From a virus: DNA of 64,000 nt. The stretch spans positions 1 to 64,000 of the IMG/VR virus record IMGVR_UViG_3300048672_000430, one strand, 5' to 3'. The translations under genes were made by a program, and so were the position numbers. Below the pieces are notes generated by a model, which had not been told where the DNA came from, did no database searches, and was given only the letters and a program-made list of their open reading frames with translations. Below are positions 15,251 through 56,421 of the stretch, piece after piece; within the stretch, counting starts at the first letter, position 1; each line of letters opens with the position of its first letter.

Positions 15251-15835
15251 TTATTGATCCTTTAGTATATCTAGTATGTCGTTACTTACTTCTTTGTCGT
15301 TTACTGAGTTAGGAGACCTATTTTTCTCCTTTCTAGCCAATAAACGTCTAACTTCCTTAAATTTATCTACGGATTCAGGTGTTTTTGGTGCATTTAAGGC
15401 ATTTAAACCACCTGTTATACCATTCTTGTGCATAAGGTAAATATTCTCTAAATTAGGGTCAAAAGGCCCATTTTTTGCGTTTTCTAGCACATTTTCGTAC
15501 TTATTTACAAGTGCCTTCATTAAAATCGCTTCTTTACGCAGCGGATTAGCCTCATTTTGACTTAAACCTTGCTGTTTTGCTAGTTCTTCTGCTGTTTTTC
15601 TTGTAGAATCAATGAGTTGATACTGTCCAGAAGCACTAGAATGAGGGTTTTTTAGGTTAATACCACCTGTTGTCTCAGCATAATGTATCTTTTCGATGTC
15701 TTCTGGGGTCAATTTCTTTGTATATTCAGCTACTTCCTTATTCATATCTCTATGATCATAAGGATCTGTAACATATTCCGATCTTTCTTTCGGAAGTTCG
15801 CTAATTCTTGCTATTAAGTCTAGAAATTTATCCAT
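15251..15835 (-). CDS. Lytic transglycosylase-like (lysozyme-fold) virion protein
   Basis: IHYAETTGG..KNPHSSASGQYQLIDST and IYLMHKNG match SLT-type motifs. Confidence 0.65.
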   Translation of the reverse strand: MDKFLDLIARISELPKERSEYVTDPYDHRDMNKEVAEYTKKLTPEDIEKIHYAETTGGINLKNPHSSASGQYQLIDSTRKTAEELAKQQGLSQNEANPLRKEAILMKALVNKYENVLENAKNGPFDPNLENIYLMHKNGITGGLNALNAPKTPESVDKFKEVRRLLARKEKNRSPNSVNDKEVSNDILDILKDQ

Positions 15836-17885
15836 TATTTGCCCTCGGATCTAAACTAGGGTTAGGTAATAGTGAAGGATCTACATTAGGTTGTGAAGGA
15901 AGTGCATTTTCTGGTGTTTGTTGTCCACCTAACATCTGTGCATTCATTAATTCGTCCACATTATTACCAGCGGTAGCACTTTGAGGCCCCATATTAGCAC
16001 CTTGTTGTGGATTCATTGGCCCTGGAGGTAAATTCGGAGCCCCAGCATTCTGTTGAGGGTTCAAAGGTTGCTCTTTAATCAACATTAATAAGTCTGGATT
16101 AACATTTCTTAACATATCAATATGTTCTTGTATGTGTGCTCTAACTTTTGCTGTTAATTCTGGGTTATCTCTTAGGTCTGGATCACTAATTACTGATCTA
16201 TGTTCTTGAATATGTAGAGAATGTCTGTCTAAAATGTCAGCCATTACCTCTTTACCTTCAAGTAACTTCTCATTTTCTCGTTTAATTAAGAAAATATCTT
16301 GCATATCTGCTTCATATAATGTTTCAACACTACCAGTTTCTAATACCATGAAGTATTGTTCTGGAGTTTTAATAATTTTCATATTAGCTAAGTTGTTTGC
16401 GATCTCTACTTTACCAGCAATTGTCTTAGCCAGAGGGTTACCAACGTTAACTGTTACTCTTCTAACATCAGAAATCATCTCACCTGTAAACTCTTTCATT
16501 AAAGATCTCTTATTTTTACCAACAATTGAGATCAATTTAGGAGTATTTGCGTAGTCTTTTAGTATTTCTATTAAAGTAGACCCGACATCTTCTAAGAATT
16601 TAACATAATTTCGTTGAAATGTGTTTTGAAATTGAAGAGACATTGACTGAACTAAGGCTAATGAGTTACCAGATCGTAATGAGGCTTCAGGATTACCTCT
16701 AGTTACTGAGTTAATACCAGATTGTGTTTCACCTAATTGCTCTAACATTTGAGCAAATTTAAATGTTTCTGGTGAAGTAGCTGTTAATTGTAATGGTTCT
16801 GGTTTTTTATTACCTTCAACTACGTTTAATCCACCAGGTAATGCCTGATGCACTAAGTCTGAACCTCTTTCTACGAATAAGTTTTGTACACCAAACGCAT
16901 TTTGATTGGTTAATATAGTAGAATATGTAGAGTTTAATGCTTCTTGTATAGGATAAACGTCAAACATATTAGAGTAACCGTAAGGTGTGCCCATAATATT
17001 TGCTGGAGATAGTCTAAATAGAGGAATACTTCTATAAGGAAGAGGTACATCCAATAGAACTACATCAGCAGCAACGAATAACATGTATCTACCTTCAGGC
17101 ATTGCTTCTGTTTTTTTATGATAAAACTTAAATACAGGAATATCATCTGTATCGTCATTAGAAAATGTTTGTAATTTAAAGCTATATATCTCATTTTTTG
17201 TAGGTAATGACATTATACGTTCTTTAAATTCAGGATATTTAGCAGCAAGGTTATATCTATTTTGAAAACTACGTACTAAAGCCCATTCCTGTGAGTAAAA
17301 GTTTTCTTTTGTCCCATCAACTACTACACTTAAAGGGTCATATAGAGTAAATTCCATCTCACCTTCGTAAGAATGTTCTCCAGTTTCTGGGTCAAAGTCT
17401 TTTGCTTCTCCAGCGGTTGCATTCCACTCCATATCAATAAATGAAGCACCCATTACTGTTGCCATTTCTACGGCATCATATATAATAGTTTCTAAGTTTT
17501 TTTCTCTCATATAATAATCTAACACACCATTTGCCAGATATGTTTGAGATAAAGATCTATAATCAGTGTTAATTGACTTTGCTTCAAAAACCGGTCTGTT
17601 TGCTGTAATAATTTGGACAATATGTTGAGCTAAATTTCTAAACATATTAATAGGAATAGATACTAATTCACCTTCTTCACCTGTAAAACTTATCGTATGG
17701 TTTTCTTGGGTTCCCTTATTAAAGTTACCATAGTAAAACTTATACATGTTAGCAAGTTTTGTAACGTATGAATTAGATTTAATTTGACTGTAAAAAGTTC
17801 TAGCTTTATCTAAAGCTGCCGCTGCTGCTCTTTCCGAGTCTCTAGCTGCGAAATACGTTTCACGATCATTTACATTACTTTCCAC
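15828..17885 (-). CDS. Portal protein
   Basis: 685 aa near terminase; PYGYSNMFDVYPIQEALN, SGINSVTRG, Q/P-rich tail as in P22-like portals. Confidence 0.8.
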   Translation of the reverse strand: MESNVNDRETYFAARDSERAAAAALDKARTFYSQIKSNSYVTKLANMYKFYYGNFNKGTQENHTISFTGEEGELVSIPINMFRNLAQHIVQIITANRPVFEAKSINTDYRSLSQTYLANGVLDYYMREKNLETIIYDAVEMATVMGASFIDMEWNATAGEAKDFDPETGEHSYEGEMEFTLYDPLSVVVDGTKENFYSQEWALVRSFQNRYNLAAKYPEFKERIMSLPTKNEIYSFKLQTFSNDDTDDIPVFKFYHKKTEAMPEGRYMLFVAADVVLLDVPLPYRSIPLFRLSPANIMGTPYGYSNMFDVYPIQEALNSTYSTILTNQNAFGVQNLFVERGSDLVHQALPGGLNVVEGNKKPEPLQLTATSPETFKFAQMLEQLGETQSGINSVTRGNPEASLRSGNSLALVQSMSLQFQNTFQRNYVKFLEDVGSTLIEILKDYANTPKLISIVGKNKRSLMKEFTGEMISDVRRVTVNVGNPLAKTIAGKVEIANNLANMKIIKTPEQYFMVLETGSVETLYEADMQDIFLIKRENEKLLEGKEVMADILDRHSLHIQEHRSVISDPDLRDNPELTAKVRAHIQEHIDMLRNVNPDLLMLIKEQPLNPQQNAGAPNLPPGPMNPQQGANMGPQSATAGNNVDELMNAQMLGGQQTPENALPSQPNVDPSLLPNPSLDPRANNG

Positions 17886-18702: not shown

Positions 18703-20166
18703 TTATTTACGTTTATTTACACCAAAGATGCTTTCATAGACTGCTATCGTTGCAGTTTTAGCGTTACTAGAATACCCAAATCCACCATTATTATAAAATG
18801 TTGAATCAGAAGGTCTATTATAGTTATTGGGATAAGGATTCTTCGTATAGTTAATTGATTTAACCATATATAATAAAGCATCTACAGCATCATAATGACC
18901 GTTTCCTGGTGATCTAGCAAAGTCATCCTTTACAGAACTATCTTTCCATCTTGCGTTTTTTAAATGCTGTCTTAATACTACACACTTTGGATTAATTATT
19001 ATTTTTTCGCTTTGCAACATTACTCTAGTTTGATTAATTAAAGGTAACTTATAACCAGGAGCTTTCTTTACCGCTTGAAAGTTTAAACGCTTATTTGAAG
19101 CTCTATTGATTTCATTAATAACAATATACTCAACATCAGATACTCTGATTTCGGGCACAATTAATTCGTTAGTTAAAATGTTCATCCAGAGCTGCTCTTC
19201 TTTTTGTAGAATTTCTTCACTAAACTTATCTAGTTTTAAATCTTTACCTTCTTTAACTATTTCATCTTCTATTATAACCTTATCTTGTTTAAAATCATAA
19301 TACCCAAATAATACTACAGTTAGATCTTTAAACCCTAAATCCATAGAAACATACGGAGTATAAAAAGGAGGTTTATTATATTCTCTTACGATCTTTGCTT
19401 CTAGTTCTTCATCAAATTCTGGAATTACCGATCTGTTTTCATCTCTAATTAATTCACACAGATACTCTCTTCTAAAATTGATATTATTAACTCCACCAAC
19501 AAACTTTGATATTATGTGATTTTTCTTTTCATCAGATAATAACGGGTTGTCAAACAATGTTTTCTTCGTTAAGAAATTTTCTTGTTCAGCAACTTCAATG
19601 AACTCTATAAATTCATGATCTGCCTCTTCAGGAGGAGTAGATGCTAAAATAATCTTACCACCTGTATGTGTTGTTGTGGGAAAAAGAATAGACATAACAT
19701 TATACTTTAGATTATTACAGAAAGCGGCCTCATCTACTAAGATTAAACTAGACTTTTGTCCCCTTAACCTTTCAGCGTTATTAGCGTCTGTACCAGCCAT
19801 TTGAATCTGTGATCCATTAGGAAACTGATAAATAAATTTAGACGGGATATACTCCGGTCTAACGTCTTCAGGACAGTCTTCTAGTATCTCTCTGAACAAC
19901 GGTTCAAATATAGTTTGAACGTGTAGTTTAGTGTCTGTTAAAAGCTTTACTATTGAATTAGGATTTTGTATAGCGTGCATTAATCCGATGATAGCTAGTA
20001 AATATGATTTACCAGATTGTCTTGCAAGTAACCAAACTAAAGTTGACTGAGGTTGAGCATTTAAGTATATGTTAAACATCTCTTTTTGTACGGTGTGCAT
20101 CTTGTGGGTCAAGATACCTCTACGCCAAAGTTCATCCTCAATTTGTTTCTTACTAATAGTAGCCAT
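18703..20166 (-). CDS. terL: Terminase large subunit
   Basis: Walker A ARQSGKS, Walker B ILVDEAAF, LASTP, FRREYLCE, nuclease SMDLGFKD and HYDAVDALLY. Confidence 0.92.
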   Translation of the reverse strand: MATISKKQIEDELWRRGILTHKMHTVQKEMFNIYLNAQPQSTLVWLLARQSGKSYLLAIIGLMHAIQNPNSIVKLLTDTKLHVQTIFEPLFREILEDCPEDVRPEYIPSKFIYQFPNGSQIQMAGTDANNAERLRGQKSSLILVDEAAFCNNLKYNVMSILFPTTTHTGGKIILASTPPEEADHEFIEFIEVAEQENFLTKKTLFDNPLLSDEKKNHIISKFVGGVNNINFRREYLCELIRDENRSVIPEFDEELEAKIVREYNKPPFYTPYVSMDLGFKDLTVVLFGYYDFKQDKVIIEDEIVKEGKDLKLDKFSEEILQKEEQLWMNILTNELIVPEIRVSDVEYIVINEINRASNKRLNFQAVKKAPGYKLPLINQTRVMLQSEKIIINPKCVVLRQHLKNARWKDSSVKDDFARSPGNGHYDAVDALLYMVKSINYTKNPYPNNYNRPSDSTFYNNGGFGYSSNAKTATIAVYESIFGVNKRK

Positions 20167-22099: not shown

Positions 22100-22591
22100 C
22101 TATTTCCGTTTCTTCACCCACTCCATCGTTCTATCGTTCAGAGCATATACCGGCTGCACTAGATCCACTCCAACATAATACTGAGCAACAAAACCCTTAG
22201 CTTCATCCATGTTCTCAAAAACCCCAACAACGGTCTTATCCTTTCTAATATTCTCAATTACAACAAACACAGCAGGTATACTACAATTCACTAGGATCTT
22301 GGGTTTATATTTTGAATAGCTAATTTTAGCCTTAACAACATCAAACCCGGCAGTAACATACTTCTCAACATAATACTGAGAGTAAATTTGTTTATATAAC
22401 AACTCTTCTGTTTTTAATAAAATTTTTATATAAGATCGATCGCCCACTAATTCTGGAAAATCATCCAAAATTTGACCTATACGAGATTTTAGGTTATTTG
22501 CATATCCAACGTAGCATTTACTAGAAACAGGGTTAATAATGGCAAATACGCAACTATTAGGTAGACTATGGAGAGTATTGATGAAATTCAT
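22100..22591 (-). CDS. Degenerate GIY-YIG-like protein
   Basis: CVFAIINPVSSKCYVGYANNLKSR resembles GIY-YIG...R motif. Confidence 0.5.
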   Translation of the reverse strand: MNFINTLHSLPNSCVFAIINPVSSKCYVGYANNLKSRIGQILDDFPELVGDRSYIKILLKTEELLYKQIYSQYYVEKYVTAGFDVVKAKISYSKYKPKILVNCSIPAVFVVIENIRKDKTVVGVFENMDEAKGFVAQYYVGVDLVQPVYALNDRTMEWVKKRK

Positions 22592-22637
22592 TGTTGTTTT
22601 CCTCAGTAAAAATATAACATTACATTAGGTCGTTATG

Positions 22638-22649
22638 TATAGTTGTTCA
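22638..22649 (-). promoter_or_regulatory. Putative late promoter motif (variant)
   Basis: TGAACAACTATA upstream of 22591. Confidence 0.5.
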
Positions 22650-22834
22650 GTATTAGTGATTTCGATGAGGTGAGTAAAATAGGTGTGGTCGAGAATAGGT
22701 GTTTATATACTTGAATTAGGTGGTATCACGGATGAGCTAACAAAGCCTTTCGTCCCGTCGGAAAGCCCATAGGGGGTAGGTAGGTGGGGGGTGTTTGATA
22801 TGCCAAACTTTTGTATGATGTTGCGAACTTAAGA

Positions 22835-23050
22835 TGGCACGGATCTTGCAGGGATATGCAAGTATCATGCCGGCACGGTAATTGCTATATATGCAAGAAG
22901 TATGCCAAGTGCTAAGTGTCCAATATTGTAGGAGTTCTGGGGTAAGTGGTTGATATGTGATGAAATTATTTGGTATTGATGTTGCTATATATGCAAGGGG
23001 CATGCCGAGGTTTACCCGGTTGAGGGCAATTTTTTGGCATCGATTTTGCA
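22835..23050. repeat. Array of seven sigma54-type -24/-12 boxes in both orientations
   Basis: YGGYAY-N5-TTGCW at 22835(+), 22857(-), 22871(+), 22892(-), 22971(+), 22992(-), 23035(+). Confidence 0.8.
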
Positions 23051-23206
23051 ATTAGACCTGCATCATTATATGCCCCAAAACCAGGAATTTTATTTTTATC
23101 CTTATATACAACGAAAATCTGTCATGCCTGAAAAATTTTTTTAGCGTCTTAACTCTATGTTATCGTTGGTGAATTTCAGATTTTTTAAATTATTTTTGAA
23201 GATCGC

Positions 23207-23235
23207 TTGCAATTATTTTTTAGATCGGTTAAGAT
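23207..23235 (+). promoter_or_regulatory. sigma70-type early promoter
   Basis: TTGCAA-17 nt-TAAGAT with upstream A/T tracts. Confidence 0.55.
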
Positions 23236-23282
23236 TGTTTCAAGGCAAGCAACTAAGCTTGTCGGTAACGAGAGGTTAGAAC

Positions 23283-23345
23283 ATGGTAGCGGTGGTTGTA
23301 GTGATTTTTGTTTCATACTTTTTATTAGAAGTTGTTGGAATATAA
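23283..23345 (+). CDS. 20-aa hydrophobic peptide
   Basis: GAGAGG RBS; MVAVVVVIFVSYFLLEVVGI. Confidence 0.45.
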   Translation: MVAVVVVIFVSYFLLEVVGI

Positions 23346-23393
23346 AAAAAAGCTATAGGTTCCCGTTGTGGATAGTTTTTCAATATGTACTTA

Positions 23394-23405
23394 CATAGTT
23401 GTTAA
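23394..23405 (-). promoter_or_regulatory. Putative late promoter motif pointing left
   Basis: TTAACAACTATG, intergenic. Confidence 0.55.
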
Positions 23406-23426
23406 ATCAACTTTAAAGGAATTGTT

Positions 23427-23681
23427 ATGATAAAAAGTAAAGAGCAGATGAAATTTGAAGCTATGAAAAGAAAACAAGTACTTGAGGCGAAAAGTAAAAA
23501 TAACGCCTTTAATAAGGCGGGGAATGTTAAGACAAGTTTTGGAAAATGTAATAAAGAGTATTTAATTAACATGGGATTTTATGTTAAAGGAGAAAGAAAT
23601 AAACCGAGTAAATCGGCATGGGTAGAAAAAAGATTAGATAAAAATATAATTGAAGTTGACTTAAGAAAAAAGTCATGCTAA
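23427..23681 (+). CDS. Basic early hypothetical protein
   Basis: 84 aa Lys-rich ORF with AAGGA RBS. Confidence 0.55.
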   Translation: MIKSKEQMKFEAMKRKQVLEAKSKNNAFNKAGNVKTSFGKCNKEYLINMGFYVKGERNKPSKSAWVEKRLDKNIIEVDLRKKSC

Positions 23682-23684
23682 TAT
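23656..23684 (+). promoter_or_regulatory. sigma70-type promoter in front of structured RNA
   Basis: TTGACT-17 nt-TAATAT with TGn. Confidence 0.6.
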
Positions 23685-23690
23685 AAAGTA

Positions 23691-24035
23691 AGTAAAGCAA
23701 CTGAGATCGGTCACAAGTCCGACTGAAAAATGCTGAGTGATTATTTAAACAAAGTACCAAAATAGGTACTATACTCAAAGAACATGATTCGGGTAGACCC
23801 CAATCCTAGGGCTTTGAATGAAACACTCACGAACCACGGCGAAAAACGCTGAAAGCTTGACAATGCAAATTGTCTGCATCGTGTAAGAAAAATGCTTATG
23901 AACCACAAGTGATCGAAAAGTCGGTGGTTGCAAGTGAAGGCTACATCATGTAAATGATGAGAGATAACCATTAAGCATTGTTTTAAACATACAATGTCCT
24001 GTTGCAAGTCAGGCTGAGAAAATGTGAGCAAAACA
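23691..24035 (+). ncRNA. Candidate structured non-coding RNA, family unassigned
   Basis: About ten nested stems, two GNRA-capped hairpins, duplicated hairpin module with compensatory changes; no plus-strand ORF; upstream promoter. Confidence 0.65.
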
Positions 24036-24056
24036 AAATATAAACCGAGGTGATTT

Positions 24057-24296
24057 ATGTATGAACAACATCGAATCGAATTGATTCGTTCAATACGTAT
24101 TTACTTATCTATGTATAAGGTATCTAAATTAGAGAATTATTTGGATTCTGCGGTCAGAGTAATGAAACAACTAGATGATCTAAATAAGGAAAATATAAAC
24201 GAATATAAAAACCTAGTGAATCTTCAAAATAAAAGAGATGAGCTAAATAATTTCTTAGATCAAACAAATAACACTGTATTTTTAAAAGCTTCTTAG
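24057..24296 (+). CDS. Early hypothetical protein
   Basis: GAGGTG RBS, 79 aa. Confidence 0.6.
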   Translation: MYEQHRIELIRSIRIYLSMYKVSKLENYLDSAVRVMKQLDDLNKENINEYKNLVNLQNKRDELNNFLDQTNNTVFLKAS

Positions 24297-24305
24297 GAGT
24301 ATGTA

Positions 24306-34322: not shown

Positions 34323-34625
34323 ATGAAGATAGTATGTAAACCAACGCCTAGATTTAAACGTTTTTTTATTGAACAGTGGGTAGAATTTTATGGATATCAT
34401 TGTGCATACTGTACGGGATATTGTGAAAATGATAGAACAATAGATCACATTATACCAATAAGTAAAGGTGGTAGAAACCAATTTATAAACATGGTCTTAG
34501 CTTGTCGTAAGTGTAATGAAGAGAAAGCAAACAAAATGCCAGAAGAGTTTAGAACACTAATGTTACAACCAATACAAAACAAACACAAAAGGAAAGAAAA
34601 TCATGACGAAAAAAGAGTTGGATGA
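34323..34625 (+). CDS. HNH endonuclease
   Basis: CAYC, TIDHIIPISKGG, NMVLACRKCNEEK. Confidence 0.85.
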   Translation: MKIVCKPTPRFKRFFIEQWVEFYGYHCAYCTGYCENDRTIDHIIPISKGGRNQFINMVLACRKCNEEKANKMPEEFRTLMLQPIQNKHKRKENHDEKRVG

Positions 34626-55180: not shown

Positions 55181-55630
55181 ATGCTTAGTATAAAGAATAT
55201 TAATAAAGAAGTTGTGATGGTTGCCTTAGTTATTGCTGGTCTAGCATTTGGTGCTGGATATTATGCAACACCATCTAAGGTTAAAACAGAGATAAAAGAA
55301 GTAGTTAAAACCGTAAAGGAAGAAGCTAAATCTAAGGTTGTGTATAAAGAAAGAATCGTCTATAAAGACGGCACAACCGTTGAACGTGAATCGGAATCGG
55401 AACAATCAAATACTAAAGAAAGTAATGAATCAACAAAAACAGCTAATTCTGAGACAACAAAAGATACTGGATTAGTTTTAAGTGCATTAGCTATTGTTGA
55501 TAGTTCTGATATTCAGGGACATAGAGATTATGGCTTACATGTTACAAAGAGAGTTTTTAGTAATATTAATGTTGGGGTAATCGCAACTACTGATAAAAAG
55601 GTTGGGGTATCCGTTGGGTTGAGCTTTTAA
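55181..55630 (+). CDS. Membrane-anchored hypothetical protein
   Basis: N-terminal TM helix; C-terminal amphipathic beta strands ending VGLSF. Confidence 0.5.
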   Translation: MLSIKNINKEVVMVALVIAGLAFGAGYYATPSKVKTEIKEVVKTVKEEAKSKVVYKERIVYKDGTTVERESESEQSNTKESNESTKTANSETTKDTGLVLSALAIVDSSDIQGHRDYGLHVTKRVFSNINVGVIATTDKKVGVSVGLSF

Positions 55631-56421
55631 TGAATGTATTAAGTTTATTCGATGGTATTTCTTGTGGACAAATTGCTCTTGAGAAAGCAGGACTTAAAGT
55701 AGATAAATACTTTGCGAGTGAGCTTGATAAGTACGCTATCGCTGTAACACAAAATAACTATCCAAATACTATACAACTTGGTGATGTTTGTAAAATTAAA
55801 GTAGAAGATCTCCCTAGTATAGATTTGTTAATTGGGGGATCTCCCTGTCAAGGGTTTTCATTTGCTGGTAAACAGTTAAATTTTAATGACCCTAGGTCTG
55901 TTTTATTTTTTGAATACGCAAGAATACTGAAAGAAGCTAAACCTAAATATTTTTTACTTGAAAATGTTAAAATGAAGAAAGAATTTCAAGATATAATTAG
56001 TAAAGAATTGGGTGTTGAGCCTATTGAAATTAATAGTAAGTTGGTTTCTGGTCAATTAAGATCAAGATTATATTGGACAAATATTCCTAATATAACTCAA
56101 CCGGAAGATAAGAATATTCAATTTCAAGATATATTAGAAAAGGATGAAGCTAGGATTCCAAAAGCTTATACGTTAACTGCTAGCTATTTTAAAAAAGGAG
56201 CAGAAGCTACTAGACAAAGAGGATTTAATAAATCACAAAGACCTATAGCTTGGATTAATGATAATGAAACTAGATGGTTAACTCCATTAGAATGTGAAAG
56301 ATTACAGACTATTCCAGAAAATTACACAAATAATGTATCCAATTCACAACGTTATAAGATGTTAGGTAATGGCTGGACGGTTGATATTATTGTTCATATA
56401 TTTAAAAACTTGACATTTTAA
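55630..56421 (+). CDS. DNA cytosine-C5 methyltransferase
   Basis: LSLFDGISCG, GGSPCQGFS, LLENV, RLYW, LTPLECERLQ, LGNGW. Confidence 0.92.
   Translation: MNVLSLFDGISCGQIALEKAGLKVDKYFASELDKYAIAVTQNNYPNTIQLGDVCKIKVEDLPSIDLLIGGSPCQGFSFAGKQLNFNDPRSVLFFEYARILKEAKPKYFLLENVKMKKEFQDIISKELGVEPIEINSKLVSGQLRSRLYWTNIPNITQPEDKNIQFQDILEKDEARIPKAYTLTASYFKKGAEATRQRGFNKSQRPIAWINDNETRWLTPLECERLQTIPENYTNNVSNSQRYKMLGNGWTVDIIVHIFKNLTF

Follow-up and report, generated by a model that had tools for sequence, protein, structure and literature searches.

Face-to-face sigma-54-type boxes between the late and early arms of an uncultured freshwater phage, and their recurrence in unrelated viral genomes

The divergence point and its flanking genes

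The locus belongs to an uncultured freshwater phage represented by an 82,107-bp IMG/VR record (linear, 96% complete, 33.1% G+C). Bases 1-64000 of this record form the window, the whole stretch of DNA that was analysed here. An 835-bp gap at 22592-23426 is the point from which a leftward late arm and a rightward early arm diverge, and it contains the array of boxes that is the subject of this work. The minus-strand genes from 22591 downward are late genes and encode a 163-aa protein, an endolysin, the large terminase subunit (18703-20166, minus strand), the portal (15828-17885, minus strand), and tail and head proteins. The plus-strand genes from ~23427 are early or middle genes, which include small ORFs, a phiEco32-like amide-ligase set, a class II ribonucleotide reductase, ThyX, a DnaB-like helicase, and a family B DNA polymerase. 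No tRNA genes were found in the window. A C-5 cytosine DNA methylase is encoded at 55630-56421 (plus strand, E 6.5e-51). In the virion arm, a 1565-aa ORF at 77378-82075 of the whole record G000 (minus strand; L196 14378-19075) matches no PHROG family, as do several other ORFs of 340-700 aa.

The first gene of the late arm (22100-22591, minus strand) encodes the 163-aa protein, which has a weak GIY-YIG-like N-terminus. A profile of this protein gives a weak GIY-YIG match in two of six members, and no match was obtained in a profile search against solved structures. Homologues adjoin arrays in three phage groups and, by locus, in L009, L010, L042, L085, and L024. A late promoter-like motif, TGAACAACTATA (22638-22649, minus strand), lies ahead of the gene in a block that is conserved in relatives. 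A second, leftward copy, TTAACAACTATG (23394-23405, minus strand), is located upstream of the array. The phage-specific late motif TTAACAACTATR has 10 matches with at most one mismatch against 2.59 expected, and its minus-strand sites in the window are at 2446, 3927, 18675, 20959, 22006, 22638, and 23394. In relatives it is found at L085 905-920 and L042 685-700, and the motif occurs as TTAACAACTATA directly ahead of the homologous first late gene in L085, L042, and L024. Repeats of CTATAGAAAC accompany the motif in the same three loci and resemble the core of single-subunit polymerase promoters.

On the early side, a candidate sigma-70-type rightward promoter has been identified at 23207-23235 (plus strand; TTGCAA, 17 nt, TAAGAT). 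It scores 8/12, below the scan threshold, and its block is conserved in L009 and L010. The conserved element CCCATAGGGGG, followed by G tracts, is located at 22766-22791 (plus strand), 44 bp to the left of the array, and is kept in L008 (4-13), L009 (4399-4408), and L010 (3568-3577). Between this element and the array, AAACTTTTGTATGA (22805-22818, plus strand) forms a dyad of the AAAC-N4-GTTT type that adjoins box 1. When read by eye, the dyad has one copy in L009 and three spaced copies in L010. A search of 22400-24300 against Rfam returned no match in the array, and the only match elsewhere in this interval was a type-P1 twister ribozyme at 23689-23743 (plus strand; 38.2 bits, below the gathering score, E 2.7e-06).

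Composition of the array

Direct reading of the letters confirms what the first-pass annotation had described, namely seven boxes with exact GG-N10-GC spacing within 22835-23050. The plus-strand boxes are box 1, TGGCAC-GGATC-TTGCA (22835-22850); box 3, CGGCAC-GGTAA-TTGCT (22871-22886); box 5, TGGTAT-TGATG-TTGCT (22971-22986); and box 7, TGGCAT-CGATT-TTGCA (23035-23050). The minus-strand boxes are box 2, CGGCAT-GATAC-TTGCA (22857-22872); box 4, TGGCAT-ACTTC-TTGCA (22892-22907); and box 6, CGGCAT-GCCCC-TTGCA (22992-23007). An eighth site at 23059-23075 (minus strand) is degenerate, with a 6-nt spacer and ATGCA, and had already been read as such. Compared by eye with YTGGCACG-N4-TTGCW, the seven boxes agree at 12, 10, 11, 10, 9, 10, and 10 of the 12 positions.

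The boxes face each other in four imperfect palindromes. Unit 1 (22835-22872) is formed by boxes 1 and 2 with 6 nt between the -12 elements, unit 2 (22871-22907) by boxes 3 and 4 with 5 nt, and unit 3 (22971-23007) by box 5, a TGGTAT variant, and box 6, also with 5 nt. In unit 4 (23035-23075), the good box 7 faces the degenerate box at a distance of 8 nt. The earlier description of three facing pairs with -12 boxes 5-6 nt apart is thus accurate. Units 1 and 2 adjoin back to back, with a 2-nt overlap of boxes 2 and 3. Unit 3 duplicates unit 2 at a distance of 100 bp and with 86% identity.

The local enrichment of RpoN-type boxes that the first-pass annotation implied is borne out by pattern scans. 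The strict pattern GGCAYN5TTGCW has seven matches in the 64-kb window, six of them in 22836-23050 and the seventh isolated at 34526-34540. By chance, 0.27 matches are expected per 64 kb (sd 0.58, largest 3), and none of 100 shuffles reached seven. The same seven matches and no other cluster were found when the whole 82,107-bp record was scanned. The box at 22971 is recovered by the relaxed pattern only, because it has T for C in GGCA. Within 22600-23420, the relaxed pattern detects seven boxes with a 5-nt spacer and none with a spacer of 3, 4, 6, or 7 nt.

The distance of the boxes from the first genes on either side is 245-590 nt, and promoter-like elements are found closer to these genes at 22638-22649 and 23207-23235. 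Both observations argue against the boxes being simple promoters. A transcript that starts at the late motif at 23394-23405 may cross the whole array, which likewise speaks against simple promoters. Since this copy of the motif points leftward, transcription for a roadblock to stop may exist, and a barrier role of the array is possible.

Related phages and the viral collection

A terminase search yielded six related viral contigs. The array is present at the same place in related phages, with six boxes in L009 (an 81.5-kb contig) and four in L010. Box order and orientation differ in these two, and the central gap of one pair in L010 is just 2 nt. The contig L008 stops in a G run just beside the position at which the array would begin. 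Three further loci from the pattern scan, L085, L042, and L024, carry six, six, and five boxes, and they share the first late gene (21-22% identity) and a G run adjoining the array. Together, the six related control regions (the window, L009, L010, L085, L042, and L024) contain 34 boxes with N5 and none with N3, N4, N6, or N7. Number, order, and orientation of the boxes differ among the six regions, and the consensus is kept. The first-pass annotation had counted relatives with intact palindromes and altered GG-N10-GC spacing as evidence against its own reading; the opposite was found, with the spacing kept in 34 boxes against 0.

By comparison, five more distant ligase-carrying phages of 77-87 kb have no array and only 0-2 scattered boxes, and a scan of 36 ligase loci found a box cluster only in the locus from L010's own contig. 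The array is therefore dispensable for this phage type and has been gained or lost within it. The absence of the array from the more distant relatives also counts against a promoter reading.

The face-to-face double box with N5 was found in at least 119 stretches when 2.9 million viral contigs were scanned, compared with 7 for N6 and 11 for N4. The matches listed comprise 310 half sites in 155 distinct units. At the positions left free by the pattern, these half sites have T before GG in 93%, a purine after CAY in 97%, and a pyrimidine one base further upstream in 77%. The position table of the 155 units was made without units less than 8 nt from a locus end. Carriers among the matches listed fall into 68-69 groups by shared proteins, and the regions looked at range from 32 to 65% G+C. 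No protein family beside the arrays is common to these groups. Cultured HMO-2011-type, CHOED, and Aeromonas phages, which have different hosts, contain no array and 0-2 scattered boxes, similar to controls. The T5-like Vibrio phage pVp-1 has four boxes compared with none in the reversed control. The motif GGGGGAGGGGG recurs in several carrier groups.

The central gap of the 155 listed units is 2, 3, 4, 5, 6, and 8 nt in 48, 32, 23, 42, 5, and 5 cases, respectively. The five-base spacers of the two halves agree at 1.35 of 5 positions, against 1.72 of 5 for shuffled partners (4.7 sd below, among the matches listed). Since the halves agree less than shuffled partners do, the unit works as duplex DNA and not as a hairpin; a structured RNA was also ruled out in this way, and no covariation for pairing was seen. 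Judged from these sequence features, the unit appears to be two independent bipartite sites placed as close together as possible, and neither a hairpin nor a site for a rigid dimer. As a form of the dimeric phage protein that the first-pass annotation had offered as one function, a rigid dimer is disfavoured, because the gap between half sites varies over 2-8 nt (2 in L010, 5-6 in the window) and no neighbour family is shared.

Another explanation is that the boxes are read by a protein other than sigma-54, from the phage or the host, with a specificity that coincides with the sigma-54 consensus. Such a protein could control the switch between early and late genes, or it could initiate replication by binding iteron-like palindromes. 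Arrays of palindromic units where genes diverge are a common feature of operators and iterons, the array is accompanied by a second dyad motif (AAAC-N4-GTTT), and homologues of the GIY-YIG-like 163-aa protein adjoin it in three groups, although this neighbour is absent from most groups. The minimum of the cumulative GC skew at ~22 kb coincides with the divergence point, but is equally explained by the switch of gene strand. G runs near the palindromes recall transcript-primed origins. G/C runs of at least 5 occur within 120 bp of palindromes in 36 of 68 groups against 22% of controls, and runs of at least 6 in 21 of 68 groups against 6% of controls (both among the matches listed). The run is G in the outward transcript in 26 groups against 9, at a median of 64 bp (36-78 bp) from the palindrome (again among the matches listed), but the window belongs to the minority orientation. 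Against this explanation, the -24/-12 spacing is rigid while the central gap varies from 2 to 8 nt, which fits a bipartite monomeric reader and not a dimer spanning the centre. In addition, one extended consensus is found in 68-69 unrelated groups without a shared neighbour protein (among the matches listed). We consider a reader other than sigma-54 to be unlikely.

The widest neighbour of the arrays is the large terminase, which lies within 3 kb in 45 of 122 listed loci from 16 groups. In 15 of these 16 groups, the array is upstream of the large terminase gene. Box orientation in 30 listed loci is unbiased, with 75 boxes pointing toward the terminase and 95 away from it. Clusters lie in divergent gaps in 26 of 60 classified cases and in 12 of 42 groups (among the matches listed), compared with 14.8% of all gaps, so that the enrichment is modest at the group level. 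For this count, gaps were defined as lying between ORFs of at least 120 aa, and 17 clusters inside a called ORF and 49 at a locus edge were left out. A separate count of the context left out 58 clusters inside a called ORF and 13 at a locus edge. The position upstream of the terminase and in divergent gaps fits a promoter region.

The same position in 15 of the 16 listed groups would also suit a packaging or terminus function, in which the head of the terminase operon would contain a concatemer junction or a region for terminase binding, marked by the array and the CCCATAGGGGG/G-run element. The T7 terminal repeat contains CCCCCATAGGGGGTACC (T7 locus L193 24-42), to which CCCATAGGGGG is similar, and the contig L008 ends in the G run adjoining CCCATAGGGGG. 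Four of five fragmentary related contigs (G040, G020, G048, and G055; L085, L042, L024, and L008) end within 550 bp of the array. However, these ends are scattered on both sides of the array, and they are therefore probably assembly breaks in a variable, repeat-rich stretch and not a fixed end. A 77,880-bp contig assembled from the probable source run crosses the array without a break, the relatives G050 and G051 end at different map positions, and in DTR-flagged records the palindromes are 5-21 kb away from contig ends that are arbitrary. The terminase gene is separated from the array by 2.7 kb and seven ORFs, and the box consensus is constant among groups whose small terminase subunits differ. 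Four other loci contain the 10-mer CCATAGGGGG, which is about the frequency expected by chance. Taken together, a packaging or terminus role is very improbable. The CCATAGGGGG 10-mer is also found 47 bp from a palindrome in the unrelated locus L047.

Candidate readers and known systems

To our knowledge, sigma-54 is unique among bacterial sigma factors in binding promoters stably while remaining silent until an ATPase fires it. The sigma-54 (RpoN) identity of the boxes, which was the core of the first-pass annotation, is well supported by comparison: GG-N10-GC is the only spacing kept in the relatives and in the collection, and the positions that the search pattern did not impose follow the consensus. 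Sigma-54 sites mapped by ChIP-seq in E. coli, e.g. TTGGCACGG..TTGCA, have the same extended consensus as the phage half sites (PMC4591121). The available text of the same source describes binding of the sigma-54 holoenzyme while it is transcriptionally inactive (PMC4591121). Since carriers range from 32 to 65% G+C and share no neighbour protein, a conserved host reader fits better than a phage-specific one. The annotation had gone on to offer four candidate functions (a decoy for host RpoN polymerase, a roadblock, a DNA-entry or packaging signal, and a site for a dimeric phage protein), each of which is hypothetical.

The phage genome was searched for a transcription machinery of its own. The sigma-54 activator domain PF00158 is absent from this genome and from all 49 other box-bearing records among the matches listed, including the 11 that are at least 90% complete. 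No plausible ATPase of this genome has a GAFTGA-like loop, and neither a sigma-54 DNA-binding domain nor sigma-70 regions 2 and 4 were found in it (G000). No T7-type polymerase was found in this genome or in the relative G001, while the T7 control was positive, and the large virion ORFs match no polymerase family. No upstream activator site was identified beside the array.

Among cultured phages, the closest comes from Silvanigrella aquatica, a freshwater bacterium. Its portal and terminase are 28-34% identical to those of the present phage, its G+C is the same, and its partial record contains one isolated box. A pilin-like protein leans weakly to Spirochaetota. Scans of genome contigs for a host gave no match, and nothing usable on rpoN in Bdellovibrio or Silvanigrella was found in the literature.

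Judging by the letters and their comparison, the boxes are probably docking sites for the sigma-54 RNA polymerase of a putative rpoN-bearing host. We propose that this polymerase would dock at the four face-to-face -24/-12 pairs that lie where the leftward late and rightward early arms diverge. The first-pass annotation had held that facing pairs are too close to fire together, which is geometrically sound and otherwise inferred. Because the two halves share the stretch to be melted, each pair would take one polymerase at a time, in either orientation. Activation would then lead to outward transcription into both arms, and the driver could be an enhancer-binding protein of the host or an unrecognised phage factor. 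The phage would thereby gain an input that depends on the state of the host, and its development would be tied to host physiology if the sites fire. That the docking sites fire outward in both directions is the output we prefer, put forward tentatively at somewhat less than an even chance. Face-to-face packing makes promoters interfere and is not how two that both fire would naturally be arranged. Neither this genome nor the 49 other listed carriers yielded an activator, and the boxes have no orientation bias toward the late genes.

These same features would be expected if the boxes bind host sigma-54 or its holoenzyme in a silent closed complex and never fire. Silent complexes could soak up scarce sigma-54 as the phage DNA multiplies and switch off the enhancer-dependent responses of the host, or they could hold polymerase in place or obstruct a leftward transcript from its possible start at 23394-23405. 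An inactive bound state of the holoenzyme is stated in the available text of PMC4591121. The lack of an activator in this phage and 49 other carriers (among the matches listed) and the unbiased orientation of the boxes favour this explanation, and the face-to-face gap of 2-8 nt would preclude double occupancy. The array also lies between two copies of the leftward late motif. Among relatives, box number, order, and orientation turn over while the consensus is kept, which is expected if number and affinity matter and not the position relative to a gene. On the other hand, there are only 4-9 boxes per genome, the benefit is hypothetical, and mutually exclusive pairs would halve the capacity of a sponge. 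The arrays head the late operon in 15 of 16 groups (among the matches listed), a position for which a pure sponge would have no need. In the record G026, single boxes are spaced from small genes as promoters would be, which suggests real promoters at least there. Docking that never fires is thus possible but rather unlikely. If the sites only bind, they would be a natural sigma-factor sponge or a barrier, which would also be useful in synthetic biology.

The complete record G026 (161 kb; L152 is G026:7000-13000) contains, within 3.7 kb of small genes, 10 boxes of the sigma-54 type. Some of these share the orientation of an ORF that starts 30-60 nt beyond them, which is what real promoters would show.

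A broader proposal, which we regard as rather unlikely, is that the facing sigma-54 sites and the nearby G run are a portable module of many unrelated phage lineages. This module would capture the enhancer-dependent polymerase without a phage-encoded activator and exploit its silent complex. The complex might be used to strip the cell of sigma-54 and so disarm its stress or defence responses, as a barrier that can be switched, or for priming replication where the two arms diverge. If this is correct, viruses would exploit a host sigma factor in a new manner.

Probable docking of host sigma-54 polymerase can be compared with several known systems. The E. coli sigma-54 promoters pspA, glnK, and norV have GG and GC doublets 10 nt apart and the consensus YTGGCAYR-N4-TTGCW, like the phage boxes (PMC4591121). 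In contrast to bacterial sigma-54 promoters, the phage boxes form face-to-face pairs in an array of 7-8, lie far from gene starts, and sit in a genome that encodes neither sigma-54 nor an activator. The available text of PMC4591121 makes no mention of palindromic, convergent, or both-orientation sites. In the dmp system, divergent sigma-54 and sigma-70 promoters are coupled through supercoiling, as described in the part of the source that was available (PMC5175336). There, a divergent promoter of a different class is affected by a sigma-54 promoter located in an intergenic gap, as may be the case here. According to the same part of the source, however, dmp has one non-overlapping pair with a known activator and no array or palindrome, unlike the phage of the window (PMC5175336).

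The Pseudomonas phage YuA is described as dependent on host sigma-54 in the accessible parts of two sources (PMC5053324; 10.1101/2023.10.13.562163). It resembles the phage of the window as a tailed phage with -24/-12 elements and without a polymerase of its own, although the use of host sigma-54 is putative here. In the GenBank record of YuA, three late-region fragments are annotated as active -24/-12 promoters, and the strict pattern matches none of them. These are single, one-way promoter fragments without an array or face-to-face pairing, unlike those of the window. A literature search found phage use of sigma-54 for YuA only, with single promoters, and returned no sigma-54 box arrays or face-to-face sigma-54 pairs in phages. 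The recurrence of dense, mutually exclusive pairs in unrelated uncultured phages in which no activator is recognisable suggests that phages interact with host transcription in a way that is widespread and unstudied. Because the consensus is universal, this interaction with sigma-54 is directly testable.

Face-to-face promoters are also part of the developmental switches of the temperate phages P2 and 186, in which single pairs of sigma-70 promoters are 35-62 bp apart. As in these phages, the candidate promoters of the window face each other at a divergence point, and use of one would exclude or interfere with the other. Unlike in P2 and 186, the boxes are of the sigma-54 type, 2-8 nt apart, and repeated four times. 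The lambda ori and the R sites of cosB consist of several short, partly inverted sites that are specific to the phage's own protein. The likeness lies in short sites, some of them inverted, within non-coding control DNA that precedes the terminase genes or is located at an origin. In contrast to the lambda sites, the boxes follow one consensus that is common to unrelated phages and equal to that of a host sigma factor.
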